Shown here: positions 5,971-48,102 of the stretch, one piece after another
Layout of the letters: the number at the start of each line of letters is the position of its first letter
Numbering within the stretch: the stretch's first letter is position 1
Source: Thermoplasmata archaeon
GTDB taxonomy: Archaea; Thermoplasmatota; SW-10-69-26; JACQPN01; JAJPHT01
Length of the DNA: 64,000 bases
Assembly: GCA_034667685.1 (NCBI GenBank)
Contig: JAXDQU010000089.1
Location: 1-64,000, forward strand
Reading direction: 5' to 3'
Notes under the pieces: generated by a model
What the model was told of the DNA's origin: nothing
What the model saw: the letters and a program-made list of their open reading frames with translations, nothing else
Database searches by the model: none
Made by a program: the position numbers and the translations under genes

Positions 5971-6018
5971 CGCTCCTGGCATCGGAGGCTCTGGCGTTTC
6001 CGGGTTGCGATGTCTCCC

Positions 6019-6100: not shown

Positions 6101-6158
6101 ACACCCATCCATGTTTTCATCCACTACCCTTAATAGTGAGTCGTCACTACCGACGCGC

Positions 6159-8694: not shown

Positions 8695-8744
8695 GGCGGG
8701 GGGTCTCTGGCATCCCCACCTAAAGCCAGCGGAAAGTCCGACGC

Positions 8745-8963
8745 CTACTGCCACTCGCAGCGGATCTCGCCGGTGTCGGGATAGTACCAGCAGACGATGC
8801 AGTTGCCCACGCGCGGGGGCAGGCCGGGGCAATTGGAGCTGGGCGTGCCGCACTCGCCGATGAGCTGCTCGACGGTGCAGAGCGAGGGGGGCGTTGCCGC
8901 GGCGATGCCCGTCGCGAAGAAGCCGGTCACCAGCATGGCGGAGATCAGGAGCATGGTCTTCAT
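8745..8963 (-). CDS. Secreted 6-Cys peptide, 72 aa (array member 5)
   Basis: Signal peptide + TPPSLC...CG.P...C...CIVCW...IRCEWQ. Confidence 0.8.
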   Translation of the reverse strand: MKTMLLISAMLVTGFFATGIAAATPPSLCTVEQLIGECGTPSSNCPGLPPRVGNCIVCWYYPDTGEIRCEWQ

Positions 8964-8996
8964 GCAAAAGAGGGGAGCGCGCCCCGCGGCTCACGC

Positions 8997-9016
8997 TTTG
9001 GGGCGCAAACGCTTTC
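8997..9016 (-). promoter_or_regulatory. Conserved 20-bp upstream motif, copy 1 (GAAAGCGTTTGCGCCCCAAA)
   Basis: 3' end lies 34 nt upstream of the ATG at 8963. Confidence 0.75.
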
Positions 9017-9017
9017 C

Positions 9018-9239
9018 TCAGTGCCACGTGCAGTGGAGGCTCGTCGGGTCGCCCTGCTCGGTCCAGCACTGGAAGCAGCTGTTGTCGGAGACGCACTGGG
9101 GCGTGGGGATGCCGCAGCCGCCGTTCTGGAAGCAGAAGTCGTTGGGGTCGGGAGGGAAGCCCGGGGGTGTGGCCGACGCCGCGCCCACGAGCAGGAGTCC
9201 GGTGGCGAGCAGTCCGAGGACGAGCATGGTGGATTTCAT
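9018..9239 (-). CDS. Secreted 6-Cys peptide, 73 aa (array member 4)
   Basis: MKSTMLVLGLL...ASA + TPPGFPPDPNDFC...CG.P...C...CFQCW...LHCTWH; paralogous to 8745-8963. Confidence 0.8.
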   Translation of the reverse strand: MKSTMLVLGLLATGLLLVGAASATPPGFPPDPNDFCFQNGGCGIPTPQCVSDNSCFQCWTEQGDPTSLHCTWH

Positions 9240-9272
9240 GCGCGGCTCGGAACGCCACGCTCCGGCTCCTGG

Positions 9273-9292
9273 TTTGGGGCGCAACGGCTTTC
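9273..9292 (-). promoter_or_regulatory. Conserved 20-bp upstream motif, copy 2 (GAAAGCCGTTGCGCCCCAAA)
   Basis: 3' end lies 34 nt upstream of the ATG at 9239. Confidence 0.75.
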
Positions 9293-9294
9293 GC

Positions 9295-9483
9295 TCAATC
9301 GCGGCAGGTGGGACCGTACGGGCCGAGGCTGCACAGGCCGAAGCAGTGCACGGGGTCCGTGATCGAGGTGCCCGTGCCGAAGAACTTGCAGACCTGGTTC
9401 GGGTCGGGCGGACCGGCGGCGGCGACGGGGGCGACGGACACGAAGAGCGCGAGCGAGACGAGGACGAGGAGGGCAGCCTTCAT
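9295..9483 (-). CDS. Secreted 4-Cys peptide, 62 aa (array member 3)
   Basis: Signal peptide + GPPDPNQVC...; GGAGGT RBS upstream. Confidence 0.78.
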   Translation of the reverse strand: MKAALLVLVSLALFVSVAPVAAAGPPDPNQVCKFFGTGTSITDPVHCFGLCSLGPYGPTCRD

Positions 9484-9487
9484 CGGC

Positions 9488-9790
9488 TTACCTCCACGTG
9501 ATGGCCTGGCACTCGATCTGCCCGTTGCTGTCGCGCCAGCACTTCGGCGGGATCGGCGAGGGCGTGGGCACGTGGCAGCCCCGCGGGCCGAAGATGGCGT
9601 GGCAGGGGTCGGTGACGATCGGGTTGCCCAGGACGCCGTGGACGAGGTCGAGCACCGGCTGCACGACGCTGCCCGGGCTGGGCGGGTCGACGCAGTAGCC
9701 GGTGTCAGGGTCGCAGATGGGCGTGGCGGACGCGAGCGGGCCCAGCGCGACCAGCGCGAGGGCGGCGAGGACGAGGAGCGAGAGCTTCAT
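9488..9790 (-). CDS. Secreted 6-Cys peptide, 100 aa (array member 2)
   Basis: MKLSLLVLAALAL...ASA + TPIC...CWRDSNGQIEC...WR; GAGGTG RBS. Confidence 0.8.
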   Translation of the reverse strand: MKLSLLVLAALALVALGPLASATPICDPDTGYCVDPPSPGSVVQPVLDLVHGVLGNPIVTDPCHAIFGPRGCHVPTPSPIPPKCWRDSNGQIECQAITWR

Positions 9791-9800
9791 CGGCGCCACC

Positions 9801-10007
9801 TCAGTTGCCGCACGGGGGCTCGTGGTGGAGGCAGCCCTGCACGAGGGCGAGGACCTGGTCCTCGACGCCGCCGACCACGCCGCCCTCGTCGGGCACGCGG
9901 TAGCAGAGGTTGGGCTTCGGGCAGATGACGTGGTCGTCGGCGCTGGCCGTGATGGAGGTCGCGAGCGGCACCGCGAGGAGCAGCGCCACGATCAGGAAAG
10001 CCTTCAT
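9801..10007 (-). CDS. Secreted 4-Cys peptide, 68 aa (array member 1)
   Basis: MKAFLIVALLLAVPLATSITASA + DDHVICPKPNLC... Confidence 0.78.
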   Translation of the reverse strand: MKAFLIVALLLAVPLATSITASADDHVICPKPNLCYRVPDEGGVVGGVEDQVLALVQGCLHHEPPCGN

Positions 10008-10040
10008 GCGCGCCGCAGGACGCGGCGTCGGCCATTCCCC

Positions 10041-10060
10041 TTTGGGGTGCAACGGCTTTC
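10041..10060 (-). promoter_or_regulatory. Conserved 20-bp upstream motif, copy 3 (GAAAGCCGTTGCACCCCAAA)
   Basis: 3' end lies 34 nt upstream of the ATG at 10007. Confidence 0.75.
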
Positions 10061-10066
10061 CCCCAT

Positions 10067-10220
10067 GCGAGGGCCCGAGGGCGAGTTTCCGCCCGGTGTC
10101 GTTTGCCGGCGCTCCCTTCCCGACACCGCGCATCCGAGTCATCCGCGGATTGCGGGATTCGCGGTGTTGGGAAGGGAGCGTCACCAAGACAGCCATCGGG
10201 TGGGAACGCTCCCTCGCCCC
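10067..10220. repeat. Dispersed palindromic element (family G), copy 1
   Basis: Core TTCCCGACACCGCGCATCCGAGTCATCCGCGGATTGCGGGATTCGCGGTGTTGGGAAGGGAGCG nearly matches 53147-53210. Confidence 0.75.
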
Positions 10221-10256
10221 GTCACGTTGAAGGTGCGGCCCGCTTCACGCCTGCGC

Positions 10257-11231
10257 GTGGACGAGCTGCTCCGGCCCCTGAGGATCGGGAACGTGCAGCT
10301 TCCCAACAACCTCGTCCTCTCGCCCATGGCGGGCTTCTCGGACCTGCCGTTCCGCGTGCTCTGCCGCGAGCACGGCGCCGGCCTCGTGTGCAGCGAGATG
10401 GTGAGCGCCACGTCCGTCCTGCGCGAGGTGCCGCACACGATGGCCCGGATGCGCACGCTGGAGAAGGAGATGCCCATGAGCATCCAGCTCTTCGGCACCG
10501 ACCCCGAGGCGGTGCGCGACGCGGCGGCCGACCTGGACGCGCGTTGCGCGATCGTCGGCTTCAACATGGGCTGCCCCGCGCACCAGATCCAGCGCCAGGG
10601 GTGCGGCGCCGCGATGCTCGACACGCCGGAGCTGGCGCTGCGCATGGTCGAGGCCGTGCGCGAGGGCACCTCCAAGCCGCTGCTCGTGAAGGTGCGGCTG
10701 GGCAACCGCGAGCGCCGCGACACGGTCGCCTTCGCCCGCGCGCTGGAGTCGGCGGGCGCGGCCGGGCTCATCGTGCACGGACGGATCGCCGCGCAGGGCT
10801 ACTCGGGCCGCAGCGACTGGGACGAGATCGCGCGCGTCAAGGCCGCCGTCTCCATCCCCGTCATCGGCAACGGCGACGTCACCGACGGCCCCAGCGCCCA
10901 GCGCGCGCTGCGCACCGGCGTCGACGGTCTCGCCGTCGGGCGCGCCAGCCTGGGCAACCCGCGCGTGTTCCGCGAGGTCGCGCACTACCTCGCCACCGGC
11001 GAGCGCCTCGCGCCGGCGAGCGCGGAGGAACGCTATCACGACTTCCTGCGCTACCTGGAGATGGCGCAGGCCGTGGGCATCGAGGCGACGCAGGTGCGCG
11101 AGCAGGCGCAGCAGTTCACGCGCGGCCTGCGCGGCGGGGCCGACCTGCGGCGCGCGTTCACCGGCTCCGTGGCCCTGGACGAGGTGCGGCGACGCTTTGC
11201 GCAATTTGCGGGCGGACCCCCGGCTGGCTGA
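10257..11231 (+). CDS. dus: tRNA-dihydrouridine synthase
   Basis: LSPMAGFSDLPFR, SEMVS, IQLFG, NMGCP, KVRLG, VHGR, IPVIGNGDV, VGR. Confidence 0.93.
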   Translation: MDELLRPLRIGNVQLPNNLVLSPMAGFSDLPFRVLCREHGAGLVCSEMVSATSVLREVPHTMARMRTLEKEMPMSIQLFGTDPEAVRDAAADLDARCAIVGFNMGCPAHQIQRQGCGAAMLDTPELALRMVEAVREGTSKPLLVKVRLGNRERRDTVAFARALESAGAAGLIVHGRIAAQGYSGRSDWDEIARVKAAVSIPVIGNGDVTDGPSAQRALRTGVDGLAVGRASLGNPRVFREVAHYLATGERLAPASAEERYHDFLRYLEMAQAVGIEATQVREQAQQFTRGLRGGADLRRAFTGSVALDEVRRRFAQFAGGPPAG

Positions 11232-11282
11232 GCAGATCACCCCCGACCCTTTTCACCACGTGGTGATCCATGGAGACAAATG

Positions 11283-11744
11283 CTACAACGGGGGCGGTAG
11301 CTGTTGTGAACCTTCCAGGCAGGGGAAGGGGGGATTGCAGTCGCTCGGTTGAACTTGGCCGCCTCCGGGGGTGTCGCACACGCCATCGTTGTTCTCATCG
11401 TCGCAGGTCTCGGTCCATTCACAGTGATCGTTTGTATCACAAGTGCATGTAGCGACCTCGCCGTCAGTGTCCCCAGGCTTGCATGACCCGGTGTAGCACT
11501 CAGTCTCGCAGCCAGCTTCTTGATGGCAGACGACGGTGTCCGACCAGTAGCATCTGGTGCAGTTTTCTTGCCAGCCGGGCCCAGGGCAACTGGTACAGTA
11601 GCCTGAATAGCCATCTGAGTGGCAGGTATCGGCGACGGCTGGTGGCAGCATGATCGTTGCAACTGAAGCAACCACAAGGGCAGCAAGGGAAAGAGTGCAC
11701 GCGCGCGAGCGTGTGGGCAGGGTTTTCGGGCGGCCGACGAACAT
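11283..11744 (-). CDS. Secreted Cys-rich protein (16 Cys in the mature part), lower GC than the flanks
   Basis: Hydrophobic leader followed by dense Cys/Asp/Thr; many A/T-ending codons. Confidence 0.65.
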   Translation of the reverse strand: MFVGRPKTLPTRSRACTLSLAALVVASVATIMLPPAVADTCHSDGYSGYCTSCPGPGWQENCTRCYWSDTVVCHQEAGCETECYTGSCKPGDTDGEVATCTCDTNDHCEWTETCDDENNDGVCDTPGGGQVQPSDCNPPFPCLEGSQQLPPPL

Positions 11745-12112
11745 GGCGGGGGGCCATCCCAGGCGAGTAACTTAGCCATTTTTCGAATTTGGTAACAAAC
11801 ATCTAGAGTGGACGTGCGCGAAGCTCGTGCGACGATCGCGCGGCCGGCGCGCCAAGAGCCCACGGGCCGACAAGGCACGAGTCGCGCCCCAGGCACTGAT
11901 CTCGATGTGGTCGAGCGCAGGAAGATTCGAAAGCAGGCTCCGCAGTTCGCGCGCTTTGGAGCGCAGCACGACCTGCGCTCATCCTTCGTGGGAGAGGTCG
12001 CCCTCAACAGCGCGCAGCGGCGATTCGAGGCCTGCCGTGCCCGGAAAAGGTGGAAAGACTGGACGACGCGGTCACCGCAAGGTTCTCGTACCCTGAGGAG
12101 GTCGAACCGGTC

Positions 12113-38224: not shown

Positions 38225-40522
38225 GTGGCGCGCAGGAAGGAGCTTCCGGGCGAGGAGCTGAGCACGGAATTCAAGCCCCTCAGCCTCCCCCCGCCCCCCT
38301 CCGCCTCCCCCAGCCTCCCTCCGCCTCCCCCAGCCTCCCCCGGCCTCCCCTTGGAGCAGATCGCCGGCATCGACCCGCGCATCCCGCCCGTGCTGCGCGC
38401 GAACGGCTATGGCGACCTCTGGCCCTCGCAGCAGGAGGCGGCGCCGATCGCGGTCGCGGGCCAGAACCTCGTCCTCGCGGTGCCCACCGCCAGCGGCAAG
38501 TCGCTCGTGGCGTACCTCGCGCTGCTGTCCAAGGCGCTCAAGGGCGCGCACGGGCTGTATCTCGTTCCGCTGCGTGCTCTCGCCTCCGAGAAGTACGAGG
38601 ACCTGAAGGCGCTCGGGAAGGAATTGGGCCTGCGGGTCGCGATCGCCACGGGCGACCTGGACGCGGAGGACCCGCAGCTCGCGCGTTTTGATATCGTGGT
38701 AGCCACGTCGGAGAAGGCCGACGCGCTGCTCCGCCACAAGGCGCAGTGGCTCACCAACATGGGGTGCATCGTCGCGGACGAGGTGCACCTCATGGGCGAC
38801 CCGGGGCGCGGTCCGACGCTGGAGGTGCTGCTCGCGCGCTTCAAGCAGCTCAACCCCGCCGCGCAGATCGTCGCGCTCTCGGCCACGATCCAGAACTCGC
38901 GCCAGATCGCGGAATGGCTCGGCGCCGCGCACGTGAAGACCGAGTGGCGCCCCGTGACGCTGCGCGAGGGCATCCTCTACGGCAACGCGATCACGTTCAG
39001 CGACGAGTCGAAGCAGAAGGTGGAGAGCGACCTGGAGGACGCGAGCCTCGCGCTCACCGAGGACTCCGTGCGCGGCGGGGGCAGCGTCATCGTCTTCGTC
39101 TCGACGCGCAAGAGCACCGAGGCGTTGGCCGAGAAGCTCGCGCAGGCCACGCGCGGCTCGCTGACGCCCGCGAACAAGGCCGCGCTCGACGAGGCCGCCG
39201 CGGGCCTGAAGGGCGGCAACGACGAGACCTCGGTGGAGAAGCGCCTCGCCAAGTGCATCGTGGGCGGCGCGGCGTTCCACCACGCGGGCCTGCGCAACGC
39301 CGAGCGCTCGCTGGTCGAGAAGCTGTTCAAGGCCGGCCATCTGAAGGCGCTGAGCGCGACGCCCACGCTCGCCGCCGGCGTCAACCTCCCCGCGCGGCGC
39401 GTCGTGGTGCGCGACCTCTTCCGCTATGACGTGAACAGCGGCAACGTCCCGATCCCGGTCCTGGAGTACAAGCAGATGGCGGGGCGCGCGGGCCGGCCTC
39501 GCTACGACAAGGTGGGCGAGGCCATCACCATCGCGAAGACGTACGAGCAGCGCGGCGAGATCAGCGCGTCGTTCCTCTTCGCGGACCCGGAGCGCATCGA
39601 GAGCAAGCTGGGCACCGAGAACGCGCTGCGCACGCATGTCCTCAGCAGCATCGCGTCCGAGTTCGTGGGCAACGAGAAGGAGCTGGACGCCTTCATGCGC
39701 GCCACGTTCTACGCGCACACGTCGGACACGTGGATCCTCAAGGAGCGCACCACCCGGGTGATCGACTTCCTGCTGGAGAACGAGCTGATCAAGGCGGAGG
39801 GGGACGAGTTCAGCGCGACGCGCTTCGGCAAGCGCGTGAGCGAATTGTACATCGATCCCGCGAGCGCGGTGAAGATCCGCGCGGGCCTGGCGCGGGTCGG
39901 CGAGGTCCGGCTCACGCCCATGAGCTTCCTGCACCTCATCGCCTCGACTCCGGATATCATCCCGCTCTACCTGCGCAAGGGGGACGAGTGGCTCGCGGGC
40001 GTGGCGCTGGAGCGCGAGAGCGAGATCCTCGTCCCGCACAAGCACGGCGCGGACTACGAGTTCTTCCTCGCGGAGCTGAAGACCGCCTCCCTCCTGCACG
40101 ACTGGGTCGAGGAGACGCCCGAGGAGGAGATGCTCAAGAAGTACGGCGCCTACCCGGGCGACGTCGCCAACAAGGTCGAGACGGCGCGCTGGCTCCTCTA
40201 CGCCACGGAGGAGATCGCGCGCATCTTCCAGAAGGAGGCGACGAAGCCCGTCGTCCAGCTCGCGGCGCGCGTGCAGCACGGCGCGCGGGCCGAGCTTCTC
40301 CCGCTCCTGGAGCTTCGCGGCGTGGGCCGTTACCGCGCGCGGCAGCTCTGGCGTGCGGGCTATCATTCCAAGGACCTGCTCGCGCAGGCCTCCGCCGCCG
40401 ACCTGACGCGCGTCCAGGGCATCGGCCCGACGCTGGCGTCCAGCATCCTCGTGGAGCTTGGGCGCGACCCGGCTAGCGAGCCCGCTCCACCGAAGCGCGG
40501 GCAGCAGACGCTGGGGGAGTGA
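38225..40522 (+). CDS. hel308: Ski2-like DNA helicase Hel308/Hjm
   Basis: PTASGKS, VPLRALASEK, ATSEK, DEVH, LSAT, FHHAGL, TPTLAAGVNLPA, QMAGRAGRP, C-terminal HhH; start uncertain (38198/38225/38351). Confidence 0.95.
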   Translation: MARRKELPGEELSTEFKPLSLPPPPSASPSLPPPPPASPGLPLEQIAGIDPRIPPVLRANGYGDLWPSQQEAAPIAVAGQNLVLAVPTASGKSLVAYLALLSKALKGAHGLYLVPLRALASEKYEDLKALGKELGLRVAIATGDLDAEDPQLARFDIVVATSEKADALLRHKAQWLTNMGCIVADEVHLMGDPGRGPTLEVLLARFKQLNPAAQIVALSATIQNSRQIAEWLGAAHVKTEWRPVTLREGILYGNAITFSDESKQKVESDLEDASLALTEDSVRGGGSVIVFVSTRKSTEALAEKLAQATRGSLTPANKAALDEAAAGLKGGNDETSVEKRLAKCIVGGAAFHHAGLRNAERSLVEKLFKAGHLKALSATPTLAAGVNLPARRVVVRDLFRYDVNSGNVPIPVLEYKQMAGRAGRPRYDKVGEAITIAKTYEQRGEISASFLFADPERIESKLGTENALRTHVLSSIASEFVGNEKELDAFMRATFYAHTSDTWILKERTTRVIDFLLENELIKAEGDEFSATRFGKRVSELYIDPASAVKIRAGLARVGEVRLTPMSFLHLIASTPDIIPLYLRKGDEWLAGVALERESEILVPHKHGADYEFFLAELKTASLLHDWVEETPEEEMLKKYGAYPGDVANKVETARWLLYATEEIARIFQKEATKPVVQLAARVQHGARAELLPLLELRGVGRYRARQLWRAGYHSKDLLAQASAADLTRVQGIGPTLASSILVELGRDPASEPAPPKRGQQTLGE
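38278..38350. repeat. C-rich ~10-bp tandem tract at or within the hel308 5' end
   Basis: (C)AGCCTCCCC/CCGCCTCCCC units; resembles 7-68. Confidence 0.65.
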
Positions 40523-40523
40523 C

Positions 40524-41003
40524 GTGACCGAGCCCACCATCCACGCCTACCGCGCCGAGGTGCGCGACGTGAAGGCGCTGCTCGCGCGCGTCCCGAAGGG
40601 CGTGCAGCTCCTGCGCGCCGACCGCGTGTACGGCGCGGATCACCTGCGCCTCGCCGCGCGCCTCGCCGCCCGCGCGCAGGCGGAGGGGCGCGGCCGCGCC
40701 GCCGACCTGGCGACCGAGACGCTGCTCTACGCCGCGGGCGAGCGGCAGGTGGCGAAGGCGCTCGCGTTCCTGGGCCTGCACGAGGGCGTCGTCGCGCTCG
40801 CGGCGGTGGCGTGGGACCCGGACGTCCTGGCGCGCCTCGCGGCCGCGGAGCGATGGACGCGCGACGACGCGCTGCTCGAAGGCGGCCCCGCCGTGCTCGA
40901 TGCCTTCGGCGTGGCGCGCGAGGAGCGCGAGATGCTGCCCCCCGCGCGCTGGGACGAGCTCGTGCTGGAGCGCGTGGCGCTGACGGACGTCCTGAAGGCC
41001 TGA
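40524..41003 (+). CDS. cgi121: KEOPS complex subunit Cgi121
   Basis: VQLLRADRVYGADHL...A...ETLLYAAGERQVAKAL..LG...LVLERVAL; follows hel308. Confidence 0.88.
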   Translation: MTEPTIHAYRAEVRDVKALLARVPKGVQLLRADRVYGADHLRLAARLAARAQAEGRGRAADLATETLLYAAGERQVAKALAFLGLHEGVVALAAVAWDPDVLARLAAAERWTRDDALLEGGPAVLDAFGVAREEREMLPPARWDELVLERVALTDVLKA

Positions 41004-41192
41004 CCCAGCAGACGGTCCCAGATTGACGAGGATTCTTTTCGCACATTTCGCGATTTCACAAGATGCTCCCAGTAACATTCTTCCTCCCGCACCTGTTAGC
41101 ATCGCCCGGGAGACCCGGATCCTCGTGCGCGCCCTCTCCGCCTTCGTTTTGCTCGTCGCGCTCCACGCCTCCACGCTCCTGGCGAGTTCACC

Positions 41193-41852
41193 ATGACACG
41201 CGTCCCGATTTCCCGACCCGAGAAGGCCGGCGGCCTGCATTGCCGAAGGATCGCCCGCGCCGCGTTTGCCCTCGCCTTGCTCCTTGCCCTCGTGATCCCC
41301 AACGTGGTCGCGGGCGGGGACGACGAGCCGCGCTCCGCCGACGATTGGCTCGCGAGCAACGCATGCGGACAGAGCCCGCTCGTGCCTCCCATCGGGTGCG
41401 CCATCACGGCCCACGTGAACCTGAGCCTCTTCGGGACCTGCAACGACGACGGCGCCTGCCCCTTCACCATCGGCGCGACGACGACCGGGACGTCCCGGCT
41501 CCCCGGCGCGATCGACGCCTACGTCTGGGTGCTGATGGATCTCCACGCGGGCGCCCATGGCGGCATCTGCGCGACCGACCCCTCGGGCTCCGTGACGGTC
41601 AGCACGCCGGAGAGCTGCATCAACGTCTGCGCGCGTAACACCGTGGGGACCTTCGCGGCATGCGCGGGGAGGACCATCATGATCGACCGCGTCGGACCAG
41701 GCGGCTGCGACGACGTCTACGTCGGCGCCAACTTCGACTGGGGCGAATACCTCGCGGGCGCCTCCGTGCTGAAGGACTACGTGGTCTGCGAGAACCTGGA
41801 CCACACGTCCTTCATCCTGCCCGACGGCGCTCCCTATCCGTTTCCGGTGTGA
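41193..41852 (+). CDS. Secreted Cys-rich hypothetical protein
   Basis: Signal-like AAFALALLLALVIP; about 10 Cys in the mature region. Confidence 0.7.
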   Translation: MTRVPISRPEKAGGLHCRRIARAAFALALLLALVIPNVVAGGDDEPRSADDWLASNACGQSPLVPPIGCAITAHVNLSLFGTCNDDGACPFTIGATTTGTSRLPGAIDAYVWVLMDLHAGAHGGICATDPSGSVTVSTPESCINVCARNTVGTFAACAGRTIMIDRVGPGGCDDVYVGANFDWGEYLAGASVLKDYVVCENLDHTSFILPDGAPYPFPV

Positions 41853-41854
41853 CC

Positions 41855-42931
41855 TCAGAGCGTGAACGCGTCGACCGCGCTGCCGTCGGTGGCCAGCACG
41901 CGCGCGCTCGCCGACCCCTTCGCGAAGTCGATCACGACCAACTCGTGCCCTTCGTGGCGCGCCGCGCTCCACGCGGGCGAGGGGCTCTGGAAGTCGTTGT
42001 AGAGCGCCGCGCCGCCTCCGCCCGTGACGACGTAGGTGACGCCGGCGATGGGTGTCGTGCGCTCGTAGTTGTGCTCGTGCCCCGCGACGGCGAGCTTGAC
42101 GCCGTGCTTCGCGAAGAGGGAGGCGAACGCCTTCTGCGCGTCGACGTCGCTGCCGTGCGTCGTGCCGCTGCTGTACCAGGGCGCGTGCTCGACGGGCACG
42201 ATCCACGCGGCGTCCGCGGCTTGCGCGGTGGCAAGGTCCCGGTCGAGCCAGCGCGCCTGCGCGTCGTCGACGTGGTTCGAGTCGAGCACGACGAAGTGGA
42301 CGGGGCCCGCGTCGAAGGAGTAGTACGCCGCGGCGCCGCGCAGGCCCTCCATCTGTGCCGCGTCCACGCCCCGCTCGACGTCGTGGTTGCCGGTGGCATA
42401 GGCGATCGGCACGCCGGGAAGCGACGAGGCCACGAGCCCCATCCAGCCGTCCCAGACGCGCTCGTCGCCGTACGCGTACGCCACGTCGCCCAGGTGCACG
42501 ACGAGGTCGGGCTTCTGCGCCGCGGCTTCTGAGAGCACGCGGCCGGCGGCGTCGCCCGCGCCGGTGTCGCCCACGAAGACGACGCGCAGGTGGTCAGCCG
42601 CGGGCACGCGCAGCGTCGCGCCGTCCGCGAGCGCGATCGTCGAGCCGGGCGCGGCGCCGCGCACGAGATCGCGGTGGAACGCGTCGCGCTCGATCCAGGG
42701 GAACGCGGCGACCGCGGACCAGCGCGTCACGTCGTCGCGCCCCGCGGCGAGCGAAGGGTCGGCGAGCCCGCCGCCGCTGCGCGTGACGATGGCGAAGCTG
42801 TCGTGGCCGGGCGCCACGACGACCTGCGTGAGCGAAGGCTCGTCGCCGCGCACCGCGATCACGAGGGGCGCGCCCACGGCGAGCGCGACGAGGCCGACCG
42901 CGGCGAGGGTGACGAGGATGCGTCGGTCCAC
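41855..42931 (-). CDS. Purple-acid-phosphatase-type metallophosphoesterase
   Basis: GDTG, GDVAY, GNHD, EH, AGHEHNYER. Confidence 0.9.
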   Translation of the reverse strand: MDRRILVTLAAVGLVALAVGAPLVIAVRGDEPSLTQVVVAPGHDSFAIVTRSGGGLADPSLAAGRDDVTRWSAVAAFPWIERDAFHRDLVRGAAPGSTIALADGATLRVPAADHLRVVFVGDTGAGDAAGRVLSEAAAQKPDLVVHLGDVAYAYGDERVWDGWMGLVASSLPGVPIAYATGNHDVERGVDAAQMEGLRGAAAYYSFDAGPVHFVVLDSNHVDDAQARWLDRDLATAQAADAAWIVPVEHAPWYSSGTTHGSDVDAQKAFASLFAKHGVKLAVAGHEHNYERTTPIAGVTYVVTGGGGAALYNDFQSPSPAWSAARHEGHELVVIDFAKGSASARVLATDGSAVDAFTL

Positions 42932-42956
42932 GCGCGGGGGGTGGCGGGCGCGGGCT

Positions 42957-44219
42957 TCAACGTTGCCGGTAGGCTCGGCGTACGGCGCAAGCGACCAGGG
43001 TGGCGAGCGCGAGCGGCGCGAGGCCGGGGGCCGGCGCGGGGCGCGCGCCGGATTCGACGGGGACCGGCGTTCCCGGGCGGACGATGGTGAACGAGTCGAG
43101 TACCGCGCCGTGCGCGTCGATGGCCTGCCCGCGAAGCCTCGTGGGCGTGAGGGTGAGCAGGACGAACTCGTACGTCGGGGCGCGCGTGGCGCTCCAGGCG
43201 GGCTGAGCGTCCCACGTGTCATAGAGCGAGTCGCCGCCCCCGCCGCTGTCCACGTAGACGATGCCCGCGCCGCGCGTCCAGGCGTCTCGCCCCGCGCTGG
43301 GCGTGCCGTTGCGCAGCGGCCAGGTGCGCTCGTACGCATGCGCGTGGCCGTAGAGCGCGACGTCGAGCCCGCCCGCCTCGAAGGCCGGGACGAAGTCGTC
43401 GTGCGCGGCCACGTCGGCGCCCCCGTCGTGCGCGTTCGAGGAGTAGAGCGGCCGGTGGAAGTACGCGATGCGCCATGCGTCGCCGGCGGACGCGAGGGAA
43501 TCGTTCAGGAACGCGAGCTGCGCCTCCGGCCTCGTCTCGTTGGGCCGCAGCGCGACGTCGTGGTGGTAGGCCTCGGTGTCGAGCGCGACGAAGAAGGCCG
43601 GACCGTACGAGAACGCGTAGTAGCGGCGCGGCGCGTCGGGGGCCGGGAAGTGCTCGTCGTACTCGCGCGCCTCGCTCCCGCAGGGCGCCAGGTCGCCCTT
43701 CGCGTCCTGCGCGCAGAGCGTCTCGTGGTTTCCCAACGCGGTCATGGTGGGCACGCGCGAGGCGAGGGGCTCGAGGCGCGCGAGCCACGCGTCCCACGTG
43801 TTGCTGTCGCCGTTCGCGTAGGAGAGGTCGCCGCCCAGGATCACGAGGTCGGGCTTCGCCGCGGCGACCGCGTCGAGGACGAGCGTGGAGCTCTCCGTGC
43901 TTCCGAGGTCCGCGAGGAACGCGACGCGCAGCGTGCCGTTGGAGCCTGGCCGCGGCGCGAGGTCGAAGGAGCGCCCGTCGATCTGATAGCTCGTCGCCTC
44001 GGCCGGGATGCGCGCCACGAAGTCGCGGTCCGGCTCGCCGGGCGCGGAGACCTGCCGCGCCGACGCCGTCCCGTGGTCCCAGCTCACCCGCGGCGTCGCG
44101 TCGTCGCCGAACGCCACGAGGTAGCCCGCGCCGTCCCACTCCACGTGCACGCCCGTGGCGGTCGCCGCGGCGCCCGGCGCCAAGAGGACGACGAACGCGA
44201 GCGCGGCCGCCAGGCGCAT
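42957..44219 (-). CDS. Secreted purple-acid-phosphatase-type metallophosphoesterase with a C-terminal sorting/anchor segment
   Basis: ADLG, GDLSY, GNHE, FH, GHAHAYER; ends PAPAPGL + hydrophobic + RR. Confidence 0.9.
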   Translation of the reverse strand: MRLAAALAFVVLLAPGAAATATGVHVEWDGAGYLVAFGDDATPRVSWDHGTASARQVSAPGEPDRDFVARIPAEATSYQIDGRSFDLAPRPGSNGTLRVAFLADLGSTESSTLVLDAVAAAKPDLVILGGDLSYANGDSNTWDAWLARLEPLASRVPTMTALGNHETLCAQDAKGDLAPCGSEAREYDEHFPAPDAPRRYYAFSYGPAFFVALDTEAYHHDVALRPNETRPEAQLAFLNDSLASAGDAWRIAYFHRPLYSSNAHDGGADVAAHDDFVPAFEAGGLDVALYGHAHAYERTWPLRNGTPSAGRDAWTRGAGIVYVDSGGGGDSLYDTWDAQPAWSATRAPTYEFVLLTLTPTRLRGQAIDAHGAVLDSFTIVRPGTPVPVESGARPAPAPGLAPLALATLVACAVRRAYRQR

Positions 44220-44271
44220 CGGAGAAGGGGAGCCAAGGAGCGGCCTTCAACGCTCCCGAACGACCGAGGGA

Positions 44272-44631
44272 TCAGGCCCACGGGTTGTCGCGCAGGAAGC
44301 GCTGGTACTCCGCGAGGAGGAACGCGACCGCCTTGCGGCGCTGCTCGGCCACGTCCGTCGCCTCCGAGCCGCGCAGGTGCGCCAGCACGGTGTGGATCTC
44401 GGCGATCCGCTCCGCGCCGGGCGGGCGCTCGTGGGCGAGGTCCTCGCTGTGGAAGAAGAAGTAGTTCCGGAGCTCGGCGTCGCCCTTGACCTCGTCGTAG
44501 GGCGCGCAGAGCAGGCGCGCGCGGATCTCGCGCCGCTCGCCCTCGGAGAGCTCCTCGTACCAGGCGATCCAGTCGCGGGAGGGCTCCCGGCGCAACGCCG
44601 GAAGCTGGACCTGGCTGGGGGTCGCTTGCAT
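44272..44631 (-). CDS. Hypothetical helical protein, 119 aa
   Basis: Protein-like composition; TTTATAT box about 25-30 nt upstream. Confidence 0.7.
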   Translation of the reverse strand: MQATPSQVQLPALRREPSRDWIAWYEELSEGERREIRARLLCAPYDEVKGDAELRNYFFFHSEDLAHERPPGAERIAEIHTVLAHLRGSEATDVAEQRRKAVAFLLAEYQRFLRDNPWA

Positions 44632-44708
44632 AAGGCAGAGTTGCTCTTTGGGTCATATAAAGGAAGCGCGGCTGGCGACCGGGTGCCTGCGGGTCCGGAG
44701 CGCCGGGG

Positions 44709-45788
44709 CTACGCGGGACCGGGCGCCAGCAGGCTCGGCACCTCGCCCGGTCGCGCCAGCTCCAGCAGCCAGTGGCCGATGCCCGCCAGCCCCTGCATGA
44801 GCGCGGGGTGCGCGTCGTAGAGCGCGCCGGTGGGCCAGGAGCGCCACGGCTCCCTCGCCTGATATCGTTCCAGCCCCCAGCGCGCGACGGCGCGGGCGCG
44901 CGCGAGGCCGCCGGGGTCGCCCAGCGCCTCGTCCATGACGTGCACGCACGCGGCGACACCCGCCACGCCGCAGCAGAGGTGGAACGGATCGCCGGGCGAG
45001 GCGAGCATCGCGTCGAGGCGCGCCTGAGCCTGCGCCCGCAGCGCGCGCACCTCCGGCGCGAGGCCGGGCACGCGCGGCATGGCGAGCGCGCGGGCCAGCC
45101 CCATGCCGGGCGCGCCGTGGCACCAGCTCTCGCGCTCGCGCGGCAGGGCGTGCTCGCGGCCGAACGCCTCGCGCGCGGCGGAGGGGTCCACGAAGGAGAG
45201 CGCGTAGGCCGCGCCCGAGAGCCCGTGCGCGAAGCCCGCGACGCGCGCCTCGCCGGGTCGGAGGTCGGCCGCGAGCGTGTCGGCCTCATCCGTGCCTGCG
45301 AGGAGCGCGAGCGCGCCCGCCGTGCCGCCCACGAGGTCCCAGCCGTGCGCGCGCCGGCGCGAGGCGAGGACCTTCGTGCGCAGCCGCCGCGCGTGGGCAC
45401 TCTCGCCCACCTGGTCCGCGGCCCACGCGACGCCCAGCGTCCCCAGGTACGGCCCGAAGCGCGCCTCGCCGCCGGTCTGCGCCGCCACGAGCGTCTTCGC
45501 CTCGTCGACGTGCCAGGCATGGCGCAGCGCATGCCGGATCGCGCCGCGGGCCGCGCGGGCGTGGGCCTTGTCTCCGCTGACGCGCGCGAGGCGGGCGAGG
45601 AAGAGCGCGATGCCCGCCGTGCCGCCGTAGAGGCTCGACTCCAGCGTGTAGGCCATCGCGCCGCCGTGCGGACCCGGCTCGCGGTGCGCGGCGATCCACG
45701 TGCACCGGTCCGCGTGCCAGACCGCCTCGCGCGCGAGCTTGTCGCCGATCGCGACGGCCTCCGCGAGCAGCGCCGCGTCCTCGCGCAT
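44709..45788 (-). CDS. lanC: Stand-alone LanC-type lanthionine cyclase, 359 aa
   Basis: GxxG repeats SLYGGTAGIA, DLVGGTAG, GFAHGLSG (catalytic His), WCHGAPG, HLCCGVAG (Zn ligands), LMQGLAGIG; TGATG overlap with the upstream gene. Confidence 0.9.
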   Translation of the reverse strand: MREDAALLAEAVAIGDKLAREAVWHADRCTWIAAHREPGPHGGAMAYTLESSLYGGTAGIALFLARLARVSGDKAHARAARGAIRHALRHAWHVDEAKTLVAAQTGGEARFGPYLGTLGVAWAADQVGESAHARRLRTKVLASRRRAHGWDLVGGTAGALALLAGTDEADTLAADLRPGEARVAGFAHGLSGAAYALSFVDPSAAREAFGREHALPRERESWCHGAPGMGLARALAMPRVPGLAPEVRALRAQAQARLDAMLASPGDPFHLCCGVAGVAACVHVMDEALGDPGGLARARAVARWGLERYQAREPWRSWPTGALYDAHPALMQGLAGIGHWLLELARPGEVPSLLAPGPA

Positions 45789-46525
45789 CAGATCGTCACC
45801 TCGATCTCGGAGCGGCCGGGCGCCAGGTGCGGCGCGTCGAGCCCTTCGGCGCGGAAGCGCGCCTCCAGCGCGTCGAGCGGGTCGCGTCCGGCGCGCCAGG
45901 CCTCGTGGAGCCCTTCGGCCGCGAGGCGGCTGCGGTGCAGGCCGAAGCTCTCGCCCCGGCCCGGGTCGTCCGCCACCGCGACGCCGGGCGCGATGCGGCG
46001 GGCGAACGCGGGCGTCCCCGGGCGCAGCCACGGTTTCACGGCCTCGTGGAGCGCGCGCACGTCCAGCGCATCGCGGGGCGCGTAGAGCACCGCGGCGTCC
46101 GCGCGCACGAACTGCGAGGGATCGTTGGCGATCTTCGCGTGGTGCGGAAGGTCGAGCTTGCGCAGCGCCCGCGCGAAGGGCAGCGCGCCCTCGCGGCAGA
46201 GGTGCCAATAGACGCGCGCGGTGCCCGGCTCCCCCGCCGCGTGCCGCCGCGCGCCGGGCATGTGGCACCAGCCCAGGTCCGGGTCCTGGCGCGGCGCGCC
46301 GCGGGCCTTCTCCAGCGCGCGGTGCAAGGCGTGGGCAAGGAGGCGCTCGCGCGGCGGCATGGCCTCGCGGACCGGGGAGCCGCGGAGGTAGTGGCGCTCG
46401 TAGATCAGCCGGGCGGCGTCCGCGACCTCCACGTTCTCGTAGCGCTCGCCCATCCAGAGGAACGTCCGCGCGTCGGCGAACGAGCCCGCGGCGGCGAGCG
46501 GCGCGAGCGCGTCGCGCAATGTCAC
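45788..46525 (-). CDS. HopA1-family phospho-Ser/Thr lyase (LanY/TvaD-like), 245 aa
   Basis: RVYWH, AKI, RADAAVLY, PAFARRIAPGVAVADDP, ESFGLHR; GTGA overlap with the kinase; GGAGGGG RBS. Confidence 0.85.
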   Translation of the reverse strand: MTLRDALAPLAAAGSFADARTFLWMGERYENVEVADAARLIYERHYLRGSPVREAMPPRERLLAHALHRALEKARGAPRQDPDLGWCHMPGARRHAAGEPGTARVYWHLCREGALPFARALRKLDLPHHAKIANDPSQFVRADAAVLYAPRDALDVRALHEAVKPWLRPGTPAFARRIAPGVAVADDPGRGESFGLHRSRLAAEGLHEAWRAGRDPLDALEARFRAEGLDAPHLAPGRSEIEVTI

Positions 46526-47574
46526 GCGAGCCACCCCTCCCCGAGAAGATCGCGCGCGGCTCGGGCCGGGTCGTCGTGCGCCGCGCGCGCGAGCCGCGCC
46601 GCGTCGAGCGGAAGCTTCGGGCGCGCCGGGGCGACGGGGAGCGCCTCGTAGGCGTGCACGGCGAGGTGGAGCGCCAGGTTGCGCAGCAGCGTCTCGCGCA
46701 GCGCGCGGGCCGAGTCGCGGGAGAGGCGCGCGGTCCGCCGATAGCCAAGCGCGGTCTGGGCCACGGCGGCGTGCCACGTCTGCGGTGGCTGGCGCTGCCC
46801 GTCGACGAGCCACGCGCGGACGTGCTCGCAGAGCGCGTAGCCGAGGTCCCACGCGGGGTCGCCGCGGTGCGCCAGCTCCCAGTCCACGAGGCGCGCGTTG
46901 AGCTCGCCGCGCGGGCCGGCGCCCGAGGTCAGGAGGAAGTTGTCCCAGCGCGCGTCGCCGTGCACGAGCCCGACGACCCGCTCGGGGGCGGCGGCGAAGG
47001 GCAGCCCGTGGAGCGCGTCGCGCAGCGCGGCGGCGTGCGGGTCCTCCTTCGCGCGGTGGTCCAGCGAGGTCGGGATGCGCAGCGCGGCGGGCGTCTCGCG
47101 CGGGATCGCGCGGAGCGAGCCCTCCCGCGCGGCGCGGATGCCGGCCACGCGCAGGCGCGCGAGGATGCGGCCCACGGTGAGCGACGAGGCGGGGCTGACG
47201 CCGCGCGCCTGGTGCAGCTTGCCCAGCGTCGTCGCCGGGTGCACGAGCGCGGTGGCGAGGATCGCGTCCCGCGGGTCGTGGCGCAGGAGCGTGGGCACGA
47301 AGCGGCGCATCGGGGCGAGCGCGGGCGCGCGGGCGAAGGCGCGCAGCGTGGCGGCCTCGCGCGCGACGCCGGCCGAAAGCTCGGCGTTGTCCGGCTCCAT
47401 CGCCTGCTTGAGCAGGACGCCCGCGCGGCGCGGCACGAGGACCTTCACGTTGCGGTTCCGGCGCGTGTAGTCGCGGACCTCGACCCGCCCGTCGCGCGCG
47501 TCCACGACGGCGCTGGCCGGCACGAGGCGGTTGCGCACGAGCCAGGGCACCGCGCCCGCCAGCGTCAGCTCCAC
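46522..47574 (-). CDS. APH-like peptide kinase (LanK/TvaC-like), ~350 aa
   Basis: TRRNRN loop, LLKQ, LVHGDARWDNFL, LVDWE, GDPAWDLG; GTG start inferred because the longer ORF overlaps a precursor gene. Confidence 0.88.
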   Translation of the reverse strand: MELTLAGAVPWLVRNRLVPASAVVDARDGRVEVRDYTRRNRNVKVLVPRRAGVLLKQAMEPDNAELSAGVAREAATLRAFARAPALAPMRRFVPTLLRHDPRDAILATALVHPATTLGKLHQARGVSPASSLTVGRILARLRVAGIRAAREGSLRAIPRETPAALRIPTSLDHRAKEDPHAAALRDALHGLPFAAAPERVVGLVHGDARWDNFLLTSGAGPRGELNARLVDWELAHRGDPAWDLGYALCEHVRAWLVDGQRQPPQTWHAAVAQTALGYRRTARLSRDSARALRETLLRNLALHLAVHAYEALPVAPARPKLPLDAARLARAAHDDPARAARDLLGEGWLA

Positions 47575-47647
47575 GCTGCCGCCACGAGGGCGCGCGACAT
47601 GAATCTTGATGTGCTCCGCAGGTCTTGCGAGCGCGGAGGTCTGCTGG

Positions 47648-47764
47648 ATGAAGCTCACCACGCGCGACATCGAAGCCATGGAAAACAAGACGCCCCGCCC
47701 CAACGAGGCGACCCCGACGGGTTGCTACTTCGGGACGGGGTGCTTCCTGTACAGCCTGCACTGA
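47648..47764 (+). CDS. RiPP precursor P1, 38 aa: MKLTTRDIEAMENKTPRPNEATPTGCYFGTGCFLYSLH
   Basis: Hand-translated; GGAGGT RBS at 47635-47640; homologous to P2-P4. Confidence 0.85.
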   Translation: MKLTTRDIEAMENKTPRPNEATPTGCYFGTGCFLYSLH

Positions 47765-47765
47765 T

Positions 47766-47876
47766 TCAGCGCAGGCTGTAGGTGAAGCAGCTCGTGCCGA
47801 AGTAGCAGCCCGTGAGCGGAGGCACGGCGCGGTGGATCGGCGCGTTCTCGATCTCTTCGATCTGGTTCTTGTTCAT
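47766..47876 (-). CDS. RiPP precursor P2, 36 aa: MNKNQIEEIENAPIHRAVPPLTGCYFGTSCFTYSLR
   Basis: Hand-translated; GAGG RBS; shared leader and core motifs. Confidence 0.88.
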   Translation of the reverse strand: MNKNQIEEIENAPIHRAVPPLTGCYFGTSCFTYSLR

Positions 47877-47885
47877 CTCATCGCC

Positions 47886-47999
47886 TCAGATGCGGGTCCA
47901 GACGTAGCAGCCCGTGTGCGGAGGCAGCGTGAAGCTGACGCCGCTCCCGGGGGCCGGTGCGTGCTCGATCGCCTCGATGTCGGAGACCTTCATGGTCAT
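47886..47999 (-). CDS. RiPP precursor P3, 37 aa: MTMKVSDIEAIEHAPAPGSGVSFTLPPHTGCYVWTRI
   Basis: Hand-translated; GAGG RBS; the second Met (47993) is an alternative start. Confidence 0.88.
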   Translation of the reverse strand: MTMKVSDIEAIEHAPAPGSGVSFTLPPHTGCYVWTRI

Positions 48000-48003
48000 C
48001 GCC

Positions 48004-48102
48004 TCAGAGGCGGGTCCAGAGGTAGCAGCCCGTCAGGTAGGGGCCGGCCTGGTTGGGCGCGGCGCGTTCCATCGTCTCGATCTCGGAAGCCTTCAGCGTC
48101 AT
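48004..48102 (-). CDS. RiPP precursor P4, 32 aa: MTLKASEIETMERAAPNQAGPYLTGCYLWTRL
   Basis: Hand-translated; GGAG upstream; core nearly identical to P3. Confidence 0.88.
   Translation of the reverse strand: MTLKASEIETMERAAPNQAGPYLTGCYLWTRL

Follow-up and report, generated by a model that had tools for sequence, protein, structure and literature searches.

The genes between positions 44709 and 48102 of the window, the stretch of 64,000 nucleotides analysed here, raise the question of whether a non-halophilic archaeon makes lanthipeptides with a separate kinase, lyase and cyclase. The sequence-only reading had proposed such a minimal split dehydratase plus LanC pathway. Its mechanism finds support in the sequence comparisons and models described below, while its novelty as a pathway does not stand, since LanK, LanY and a stand-alone LanC together already constitute class Vb, of which SmoA/SmoKYC from Streptomyces is the characterised member according to the accessible parts of PMC11186320 and PMC12328550, where the SmoKYC pathway is credited to Pei et al. 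2022, JACS. The kinase-lyase-LanC pathway itself is thus no new kind of pathway, and the locus is quite probably a functional cluster of class V, subgroup Vb type, in a non-halophilic soil archaeon. In the proposed mechanism, LanK would bind the leader motif of the precursor and then phosphorylate Thr and Ser residues of the core, LanY would β-eliminate the phosphate to leave dehydrobutyrine or dehydroalanine, and LanC would add core Cys thiols to the dehydrated residues, generating (methyl)lanthionine rings. Leader removal, export and a biological role of the product are presumed.

Gene organisation and the three enzymes

The enzyme genes lie on the minus strand and encode LanK (350 aa; 46522..47574), LanY (245 aa; 45788..46525) and LanC (359 aa; 44709..45788), predicted respectively to be an APH-fold Ser/Thr kinase, a compact HopA1-type phospho-Ser/Thr lyase and a stand-alone lanthionine cyclase with WCHG and CCG motifs. 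The translational coupling first noticed at this locus can be read directly from the junctions, where the LanK stop TGA (46524-46522) overlaps the LanY start GTG (46525-46523) as GTGA and the LanY stop TGA (45790-45788) overlaps the LanC start ATG (45788-45786) as TGATG. LanC, with an ATG of its own, is a separate protein without fusion to a kinase or dehydratase domain, and both LANC_like genes of the genome are stand-alone, each adjoining a HopA1 gene. A divergent intergenic region of 73 nt (47575..47647), presumed to hold promoters, separates the start of LanK from that of precursor gene A4. Profile searches of the window genes revealed no protease, transporter or immunity gene in or adjoining the cluster. 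None of the genes called in the window matches LanD (HFCD flavoprotein) or LanX, and the absence of a decarboxylase and a methyltransferase from the cluster, as originally read, was borne out. Elsewhere in the genome, PF02441 has two matches, on contigs C86 and C70, while LanB PF04738 has none, a profile that was also silent in all 14 control genomes.

HMM searches upheld the kinase, HopA1 and LanC identities initially assigned, all three proteins scoring above the Pfam cut-offs. LanK matches APH PF01636 with 34.4 bits (cut-off 23.2; 2.5e-8), and its best NCBIfam match is LxmK (equivalog NF038156), at 45.5 bits and far under the 315-bit cut-off; by profile comparison it is a distant LxmK relative and no LxmK orthologue. 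The profile of the archaeal kinases matches LxmK (9dk1_A) at 9.3e-6, and residues K56, H205-G-D207, N212 and D231-W-E are invariant in the six archaeal kinases aligned. The start of LanK is likely GTG 47574, the sole start codon downstream of the A4 gene, where a VELTL motif is conserved in the orthologue. A 393-aa kinase frame (47703-46522), open up to TTG 47703, is less likely because it would overlap the plus-strand A4 gene.

LanY matches HopA1 PF17914 with 77.9 bits (cut-off 22.7; 1.1e-21). Its AF2 model (pLDDT 89.7) has LxmY as best structural match (9dk1_B; Z 20.5, rmsd 3.0, 225 aligned), followed by HopA1, class III/IV lyase domains and OspF/SpvC, and residues R112, Y114, K139, R149 and D151 (alignment numbering) are conserved. 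Compared with bacterial homologues, approximately 60 alignment columns are absent from the window LanY, its orthologue and protein P0002; these align with LxmY ~107-166, i.e. the small domain LxmY ~104-160, which forms part of the main kinase-lyase interface according to the accessible text of a review. Formation of a LanK-LanY complex may therefore differ or be weakened.

LanC matches LANC_like PF05147 with 85.9 bits (cut-off 23.2; 2.6e-24); within NCBIfam it scores best, at 127 bits, against the LanM C-terminal domain. The AF2 model (pLDDT 89.5, pTM 0.92) retrieved LicM2, CuvL, LanCL1, MadC, CylM and NisC as top Foldseek matches. Alignment with LicM2 identified AHGLSG and WCHGAPG, with LCCG where LCHG is expected. 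The canonical Cys-Cys-His zinc site is thus absent, CCG giving three Cys that probably bind the zinc; CHG occurs in every bacterial LanC row with a readable motif. In the LanC tree the archaeal enzymes cluster together and the window CCG-type is nested among archaeal CHG-type LanCs, its CCG therefore having arisen independently of ProcM-like enzymes.

The altered motif bears on whether the peptides are dehydrated without becoming lanthipeptides, LanC being inactive or otherwise employed, or rings forming spontaneously. Examples would be a LanC that adds another thiol, and a peptide product that contains Dhb or is linked in another way. While the His to Cys change at the third zinc ligand is found in only 2 of the 60 LanC rows examined, the short precursor cores have a single Cys each and (Me)Lan formation can be spontaneous in class Va, according to the accessible literature, the CCG motif with its three Cys zinc ligands is described as a mark of active, promiscuous ProcM-like cyclases. 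Moreover, LanC retains the catalytic His and both other zinc Cys, is translationally coupled to LanY and shows a lower dN/dS than either LanK or LanY. Such an outcome is thus judged improbable, and ring formation by LanC is preferred.

Less probable again is a decaying, productless remnant, a reduced copy of the larger paralogous clusters of the genus. It would accommodate the short LanY (245 aa) and LanC (359 aa) relative to their relatives, the absence of accessory genes, the long branch (1.02) of the LanC pair from the window and the congeneric genome L015, and dN/dS values against the orthologues (NG86) of 0.59 for LanK, 0.58 for LanY and 0.42 for LanC, which are moderately low only, with dS probably underestimated at a GC3 of 95%. 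Decay is difficult to reconcile with kinase, lyase and cyclase frames that two species keep intact and coupled (the compact subtype being sampled in two genomes and one 1.5-kb fragment only), with invariant catalytic residues, with AF2 models that are confident for both LanY and LanC, and with precursors that are amplified to four copies and whose core changes are all synonymous. A functional set of enzymes therefore continues to be the favoured reading.

Precursor peptides and their predicted recognition

The four homologous precursors proposed from the sequence are present, of 32-38 aa and with T-G-C-Y invariant in all four; the fourth proved to lie on the plus strand, convergent with its neighbour. 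A1 (32 aa; 48004..48102), A2 (37 aa; 47886..47999, alternative start ATG 47993) and A3 (36 aa; 47766..47876) form a minus-strand tandem, while A4 (38 aa; 47648..47764) occupies the opposite strand with a stop-to-stop gap to A3 of 1 nt. The cores comprise 9-15 residues with one [TS]-x-C-[YF] unit in the short type, i.e. TGCYLWTRL in A1 (GC3 0.94 vs GC2 0.53) and TGCYVWTRI in A2, or two units in the long type, i.e. TGCYFGTSCFTYSLR in A3 (orthologue L015 10551-10673) and TGCYFGTGCFLYSLH in A4 (orthologue L015 10394-10513). None of the four ends in Cys, as had been read at the outset. Where A3 and A4 meet, their 3' ends and both stops constitute a 31-nt near-palindrome (47750..47780) with 15-nt arms, 14/15 complementary. 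The convergent layout is kept in the congeneric genome, where the A3/A4 site is occupied by a spacer of 37 nt that includes an A7-hairpin-T5 element. In a second soil study, one contig spans the convergent junction and is identical to the window over 47675-47833. Between the A4 core and its congeneric orthologue 9 of 16 codons differ, with 9 synonymous and 0 non-synonymous changes; by this codon comparison the precursor core is under purifying selection.

Since the cores consist of one or two [TS]-x-C-[YF] units, small i-to-i+2 rings are the best guess for the product; alternatively, Cys3 could be paired with the conserved Thr/Ser7. A three-residue (i, i+2) MeLan ring is unusual.

The leaders share the acidic motif [DE]-I-[ED]-x-[IM]-E. 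A model of LanK and LanY with A2 gave a median ipSAE of 0.63 over three runs, against 0.01 for the best control, the mark used being attained by 58/80 solved complexes and 2/110 mismatched pairs, a calibration that is only roughly valid here because the model combined three chains and relied on custom alignments. The runs agreed in at least 38% of their contacts, and partner pLDDT was at least 49. Residues 1-5, 7-12 and 14 of the A2 leader contact kinase residues 113-129 and 215-226, while the A2 core is placed without confidence. The model supports binding of the precursor leader motif to LanK.

That the true substrate is some other peptide or protein, the small ORFs being fortuitous or otherwise employed, is very unlikely, even if the enzyme-peptide link is drawn indirectly and the core is not confidently placed in the model. 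A six-frame scan of the 3.48 Mb genome found the leader motif combined with [TS]GC[YF] no more than 20 residues from a stop in these four ORFs alone, the small ORFs are kept beside orthologous enzymes, a related leader motif accompanies every archaeal K/Y/C locus examined and the complex model beats its controls. The four peptides are thus preferred as the substrates.

Archaeal host and distribution of the triad

The contig has an archaeal 16S-23S rRNA operon, Hel308 and KEOPS Cgi121 are located 4-6 kb to one side of the cluster and ArlJ/FlaI (archaellum) 5-9 kb to the other, and the proteome is non-acidic. The host is a soil archaeon, and its initial assignment as non-halophilic is upheld. 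Bacterial DNA misjoined to, or misbinned with, an archaeal genome is barely credible, for while the nearest non-archaeal relatives are all bacterial and the contigs of the congeneric genome are publicly labelled proteobacterium, the rRNA operon and these flanking genes share the contig, GC is 0.75-0.77 in the cluster vs 0.71 in the genome, independent contigs cover the region and the LanC tree keeps the archaeal sequences in one group.

The search for further archaeal triads with short ORFs was productive. Kinase, lyase and LanC are together in 8 of 9 archaeal HopA1 loci, the ninth being a 2.5-kb contig too short to reach the kinase, and each of the eight archaeal loci with enough flank holds one or more Cys/Ser/Thr-rich ORFs whose leader is related. 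In long forms of this archaeal family the leader motif reads [DE]-I-E-x-L-E-N-T-S. Among the 62 nearest bacterial loci, kinase and LanC matches were found in 50 and LanC in 54; the archaeal leader motif gave no credible ORF in these 62 loci, the five flagged all resembling fragments of ordinary proteins. Eyles et al. 2021 (PMC8153245) reported that 20% of 1,340 bacterial HopA1 proteins are near or fused to LanC.

Relation to known lanthipeptide systems

A survey covering 11,644 archaeal genomes placed archaeal lanthipeptides in Halobacteria only, the 33 archaeal lanthipeptide clusters of RefSeq are all class II and, in the accessible literature, class V chemistry is characterised in actinobacteria only. 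No report was found of a lanthipeptide cluster that is non-class-II or non-haloarchaeal, and the host domain appears to be new. The family of archaeal paralogues, marked by a leader motif of its own, the derived compact subtype (LanY without the LxmY ~104-160 domain, CCG LanC and [TS]xC[YF] cores) and the convergent precursor genes likewise appear to be new. A bolder reading, in which these are the first lanthipeptides outside haloarchaea and the first archaeal class V, forming a radiation with its own leader code from which the genus of the window evolved a minimal machine, with a docking-domain-free lyase and a three-Cys zinc cyclase of an origin independent of ProcM, that makes 9-15-residue peptides with very small methyllanthionine rings from convergent genes, is tentative and falls somewhat short of likely. 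If true, the small-ring peptides could serve in soil as signals between archaea or as antimicrobials. A family of class V type in soil archaea that are not halophilic would broaden the known archaeal chemical repertoire. With enzymes of 350, 245 and 359 aa and substrates of 32-38 aa, the compact subtype is a small, tractable system for studying how LanK and LanY work together when the LxmY-type docking domain is missing and what role a Cys3 zinc site has in a stand-alone LanC.

The haloarchaeal class II systems (LanM; archalans) are also archaeal clusters with several precursors. There, however, one fused enzyme dehydrates and cyclises, whereas the window enzymes are split and their host is non-halophilic; similarly, the ProcM-like CCG belongs to a LanM cyclase domain and the window CCG enzyme is a stand-alone LanC. 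The uncharacterised bacterial HopA1-LanC clusters (Families 11/20, 22; PMC8153245) display the same K-Y-C gene order. The same kinase-lyase pair is found in class Va, in LxmK/LxmY of lexapeptide (PDB 9DK1-3) and in CaoK/CaoY of cacaoidin, for which LanK/LanY dehydration has been reconstituted. Binding of the leader to the kinase is reported for CaoK in the accessible text, and is likewise modelled for the archaeal LanK. In contrast to class Va, LanD, LanX, F420 reductase and methyltransferase are absent here and LanC is present, and the archaeal LanY is ~90-130 residues shorter than class Va lyases.

The SmoKYC system of class Vb, for which LanC-dependent cyclisation is described in the accessible parts of PMC11186320 and PMC12328550, differs in several respects, the comparison drawing on descriptions of SmoKYC rather than on its sequences. 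Its host is an actinobacterium, the archaeal LanY lacks the LxmY ~104-160 domain, the archaeal LanC has CCG for CHG, and the archaeal cluster encodes four precursors, of which one is read from the other strand. SmoA, as described in the accessible text, has three rings, two of them overlapping, against archaeal cores of 9-15 residues that contain a single Cys or two. Both systems nevertheless combine a separate APH kinase and HopA1 lyase with a dedicated stand-alone LanC and lack decarboxylase and AviCys, and a C-terminal Cys in the precursor is unnecessary in both.

Enzymes of the operon and their predicted activity

The gene cluster at 44709-48102 is real, and the lanthipeptide mechanism proposed for it in a sequence-only reading, with an APH-fold kinase (LanK), a HopA1-type lyase (LanY), a stand-alone lanthionine cyclase (LanC) and short precursors, is its best and likely explanation, with chemistry and ring pattern as predictions. 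The three enzymes are encoded on the minus strand and their proposed identities were upheld by Pfam, in which the cyclase matched LANC_like with 85.9 bits (cut-off 23.2), the lyase the HopA1 family with 77.9 bits (cut-off 22.7) and the kinase the APH family with 34.4 bits (cut-off 23.2). LanY extends from 46525 to 45788 (245 aa, the same length as in the protein database) and LanC from 45788 to 44709 (359 aa). Reading both junctions verified the translational overlaps: the GTG start of LanY (46525-46523) shares bases with the kinase stop TGA (46524-46522), as the ATG start of LanC (45788-45786) does with the LanY stop TGA (45790-45788). The kinase reading frame stays open as far as TTG 47703; the extra stretch would cross a peptide gene in antisense, and GTG 47574 is the sole kinase start codon past that gene. 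From this codon onward the sequence (ELTLAGAVPW) matches the orthologue in the alignment, and we infer that LanK runs from GTG 47574 to 46522 on the minus strand (350 aa).

In LanK, no variation among six archaeal homologues is seen at K56 (the ATP-binding Lys), H205-G-D207, N212 or D231-W-E233. The archaeal kinase profile matches the solved lexapeptide kinase LxmK (9dk1_A) at 9.3e-6, and LxmK is also the best NCBIfam family, at 45.5 bits, far under its cut-off of 315. The AF2 model of LanY (pLDDT 89.7) has LxmY (9dk1_B) as its best structural match (Z 20.5, rmsd of 3.0 over 225 aligned residues), followed by HopA1 (Z 16.1) and, more weakly, by the lyase domains of class IV CuvL and class III ThurKC, SalKC and PneKC (Z 8-12) and by OspF/SpvC (Z about 8). 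Residues Y114, R149 and D151 of LanY are invariant in 17 aligned sequences, with R112 and K139 present in at least 90%. The LanC model (pLDDT 89.5, pTM 0.92) retrieved LicM2, CuvL, LanCL1/2, MadC, CylM and NisC as top Foldseek matches, and its alignment to LicM2 places AHGLSG at the catalytic His, WCHGAPG at the first zinc Cys, and LCCG in the position of LicM2's LCHG. Across 21 sequences, H188, W222-C223, C272 and G274 do not vary. Judged from sequence and models, all three enzymes look active.

Precursor peptides and leader recognition

Three precursor ORFs, A1 (48102-48004), A2 (47999-47886) and A3 (47876-47766), form a tandem array on the minus strand, each preceded by the spacer TGAGGCGATGA, and a fourth homologue, A4 (47648-47764), lies on the plus strand and converges on A3. 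The stop codons of A3 and A4 are 1 base apart, and the 3' ends of these two genes make a 31-nt near-palindrome at 47750-47780. In a second soil study (X2), one contig spans this junction (47675-47833) with zero differences; sample X1, possibly the source sample, was not counted as independent. Many apparent joints in matching metagenome contigs were discarded as noise, their sides measuring 20-35 nt at 90% likeness in high-GC metagenomes. The leader motif [DE/Q]-I-[ED]-x-[IM]-E recurs in all four peptides, and T-G-C-Y is invariant among them. Two core types are distinguished, a short one, TGCY[LV]WTR[LI], and a long one, TGCYFG[TS]xCF[TL]YSL[RH], which comprises two [TS]-x-C-[YF] units; none of the four ends in Cys, as had been observed earlier.

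A chance origin of the peptide ORFs is excluded on three grounds. When all six frames of the complete 3.48-Mb assembly were searched for the leader motif combined with [TS]GC[YF] close to a stop, only A1-A4 were returned. Contig C50 of the congeneric genome G108 carries one plus-strand and one minus-strand precursor, convergent as in the window. Between A4 and the plus-strand orthologue, 9 of 16 core codons differ and all nine changes are synonymous, the leader showing 3 synonymous and 8 non-synonymous changes. The two convergent junctions differ: that of the window is 1 nt only, with a palindrome of coding ends, instead of the spacer hairpin of G108. The latter spacer (37 nt, 10514-10550 of the fetched C50 stretch) consists of A7, a GC-rich hairpin and T5, and looks like a two-way terminator.

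LanK, LanY and A2, each from a 6-row alignment, were folded as a complex, with two unrelated 37-mers and a replaced kinase as controls. The model reached an ipSAE of 0.63 (runs 0.61-0.65) against 0.01 for the best control; 58 of 80 solved complexes reach the score mark, as do 2 of 110 mismatched pairs, counts that hold only roughly here, and some of the score may reflect memorisation, since related complexes have already been solved. Runs had at least 38% of contacts in common and a partner pLDDT of at least 49. Leader residues 1-5, 7-12 and 14 (S-D-I-E-A-I-E) make confident contacts with kinase regions 113-129 and 215-226, which include the invariant P113, T115, L117 and A219; the core of A2 was not placed. 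The model thus supports a putative docking of the leader on LanK.

Host and genomic setting

The host, an archaeon, is not a salt-in halophile, in line with the earlier proposal of a probably non-halophilic archaeal host. Its genome (3.48 Mb, 124 contigs) is 99% complete with 1.29% contamination. The contig that holds the window has, about 5 kb beyond it, a complete archaeal 16S rRNA gene (1498 bits), a tRNA gene and the beginning of a 23S gene, also archaeal. The cluster, with a GC content of 0.75-0.77 versus 0.71 for the whole genome, is flanked on one side by Hel308 (827 bits to PRK02362) and the KEOPS subunit Cgi121, and on the other by ArlJ/FlaJ and the archaellum ATPase FlaI, with AglJ-type glycosylation genes farther away within the window. 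The nearest ESM Atlas cluster of this FlaI is mostly Thermoplasmatota, which is taken as a lead only. The proteome is non-acidic (median pI of 6.6, D+E 9.5% and K+R 9.2%, from 37 ORFs of 150 aa or more, crudely called), and the public sequencing runs containing window DNA are all soil metagenomes. A search of sequencing runs for RNA data covering the window listed none.

The stretch 38347-44637, comprising Hel308, Cgi121, two metallophosphoesterases and a 119-aa ORF, is collinear with contig C15 of G108. Collinearity ends exactly at the cluster edge, the orthologous G108 cluster residing on C50 in another neighbourhood. The cluster thus sits at a synteny break, and this gene order indicates that it has moved or occupies a rearrangement point. 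G108 shares Hel308 and Cgi121 with the window contig at ~84-90% translated identity; its public label, that of a proteobacterial MAG, is probably wrong.

Pfam and NCBIfam searches of the window genes found no protease, transporter, flavoprotein or methyltransferase near the cluster, and the two flavoprotein matches of the genome lie on other contigs; the reported absence of a flavin decarboxylase and a methyltransferase therefore stands. The two tandem calcineurin-like/purple-acid-phosphatase-type metallophosphoesterases immediately downstream (41855-44219, minus strand) are probably unrelated to the cluster, because both are kept in G108 without it. The 119-aa ORF, also downstream (44631-44272, minus strand; no Pfam match), was set aside as a cluster member: its G108 orthologue, 79% identical, lies on a different contig, apart from that genome's lanthipeptide cluster. 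A TTTATAT box at 44654-44660, ~25 nt 5' of its ATG, suggests that this ORF has its own archaeal promoter and a leaderless or short-leader mRNA. Between a histidine kinase gene and A1, an 81-aa minus-strand ORF (48456-48211) displays a coding-like GC3 of 0.84, with no Pfam match and no counterpart found in G108.

Archaeal and bacterial relatives and comparison with class V

HopA1 (PF17914) matches occur in 5 of 401 sampled genomes of the phylum, at two loci in the host genome, four in G108 and the rest in three genomes of another family. Kinase, lyase and cyclase follow in that order at eight of the nine archaeal loci; the ninth is a 2.5-kb contig that stops short of the kinase gene. The orthologous operon on C50 of G108 encodes enzymes 66-72% identical to those of the window. 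Every archaeal locus with enough flank also contains Cys/Ser/Thr-rich ORFs, up to six per locus, with a related N-terminal motif (for example DIE[QR]LENTS[IF] or DVESLENTSI), so that the triad with short neighbouring ORFs, which the sequence-only reading proposed to look for, does recur in archaeal genomes.

Some archaeal loci also hold luciferase-like oxidoreductases, an ABC ATPase or M50 peptidases. The second operon of the host genome, on contig C23, spans about 4800-11900 of the fetched stretch (C23:21000-35339) and comprises, on the minus strand throughout, LanK (10363-9209), LanY (9205-8276) and LanC (8279-7029). A 65-aa Cys-rich candidate precursor (minus strand, ~10646-10449), whose sequence ends in CTCTIFFC, is found upstream; an ABC ATPase (10764-11840) is divergent to the operon, and an M50+PDZ peptidase (6294-4834) is downstream. 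Loci on G108 contig C39 (5200-14200) and G312 contig C18 (4100-11700) have up to six Cys/Thr-rich precursors of 68-207 aa with the DIE[QR]LENTS[IF] leader, two luciferase-like oxidoreductase genes and weak M50-peptidase matches. By analogy with D-amino-acid formation in class V, these oxidoreductases are possibly F420-dependent.

LANC_like matches are found in 23 of the 401 genomes, five of which also have HopA1. Three proteins from the 18 further genomes were examined and rejected as LanM/LanL-type synthetases, lacking a kinase or dehydratase domain. Two of them (~800-1,340 aa, one ORF overrunning the fetched stretch) display an (alpha/alpha)6 barrel with Ig-like/NPCBM-associated domains, and the third (489 aa) adjoins a clostripain-family peptidase. 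Most LANC_like matches elsewhere in the phylum thus seem not to be lanthipeptide enzymes. In a quick maximum-likelihood LanC tree (56 rows, four motif-less rows left out), nine archaeal rows and one long-branch Rhizobium row form one group (SH-aLRT 90), in which the window and G108 proteins pair (support 100; branch length 1.02) within the genus's own paralogues (support 91). A single archaeal group is not contradicted by this tree, which is read cautiously because it is unrooted, was searched quickly and includes ten rows of odd composition.

The 62 nearest bacterial loci, from a locus scan with a 6-row alignment, belong to Acidobacteriota, Chloroflexota, Cyanobacteriota, Pseudomonadota, Actinomycetota, Gemmatimonadota, Planctomycetota and Verrucomicrobiota. 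LanC matches occur in 54 loci, kinase and LanC together in 50, and HopA1 plus LanC within one stop-to-stop ORF, as possible fusions, in 17; the archaeal leader motif was flagged in five of the 62, all apparently ordinary-protein fragments. Eyles et al. 2021 (PMC8153245) report 1,340 bacterial HopA1 proteins, 96% with a phosphotransferase and 20% with LanC near or fused, and Liang et al. 2022, where LanK and LanY are named, reconstituted dehydration by CaoK/CaoY. The combination of LanK/LanY with a dedicated LanC is described as class Vb, with SmoA of Streptomyces given as its sole characterised member (Ding et al. 2024; 2025 review; PMC11186320, PMC12328550). The three-enzyme pathway as such is thus known: the proposed minimal split dehydratase plus LanC holds as the best explanation of the mechanism and fails as a new pathway.

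Among archaea, Walker et al. 2020 report only 33 lanthipeptide clusters, of class II, and according to an antiSMASH survey that covered 11,644 archaeal genomes, lanthipeptide clusters are LanM-based and exclusive to haloarchaea; a term search found class V, HopA1 and LanC nowhere in its main text. Our literature search, whose reach stopped short of the supplementary tables of PMC12144867 and PMC8153245, found no published archaeal class V cluster.

The window enzymes form a compact subtype with few relatives. Among 5.8 billion proteins, LanY has two relatives only at 65% identity, one of them the G108 protein, and the next best is 46% identical across 56% of the query; LanC's best matches are 65% (across 56% of its length), 41% and 37% identical. 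Metagenome scans for the subtype found no further members with a single protein as query and, with a 3-sequence alignment, one locus, which is 100% identical to the G108 contig and thus not an independent member. LanC has 359 aa versus about 415-430 in relatives. Over 60 extracted LanC rows (three short matches dropped), a regular expression found WCHG and CHG in 52 and one or both motifs missing in six; CCG occurs in two, the window protein and its G108 orthologue. CCG is described as the signature of ProcM-like enzymes, in which three Cys bind zinc (PMC8524650), and the window LanC likewise has it at its predicted zinc site. LanY lacks ~60 alignment columns present in bacterial homologues, a deletion shared by the G108 orthologue and a fragment (P0002). 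In profile alignment the missing columns correspond to LxmY ~107-166; LxmY has a small domain (104-160) that, according to a review (PMC12141560), takes part in the major interface with LxmK. With the pathway itself already known, what appears new is its reduced form and its presence in a new domain of life.
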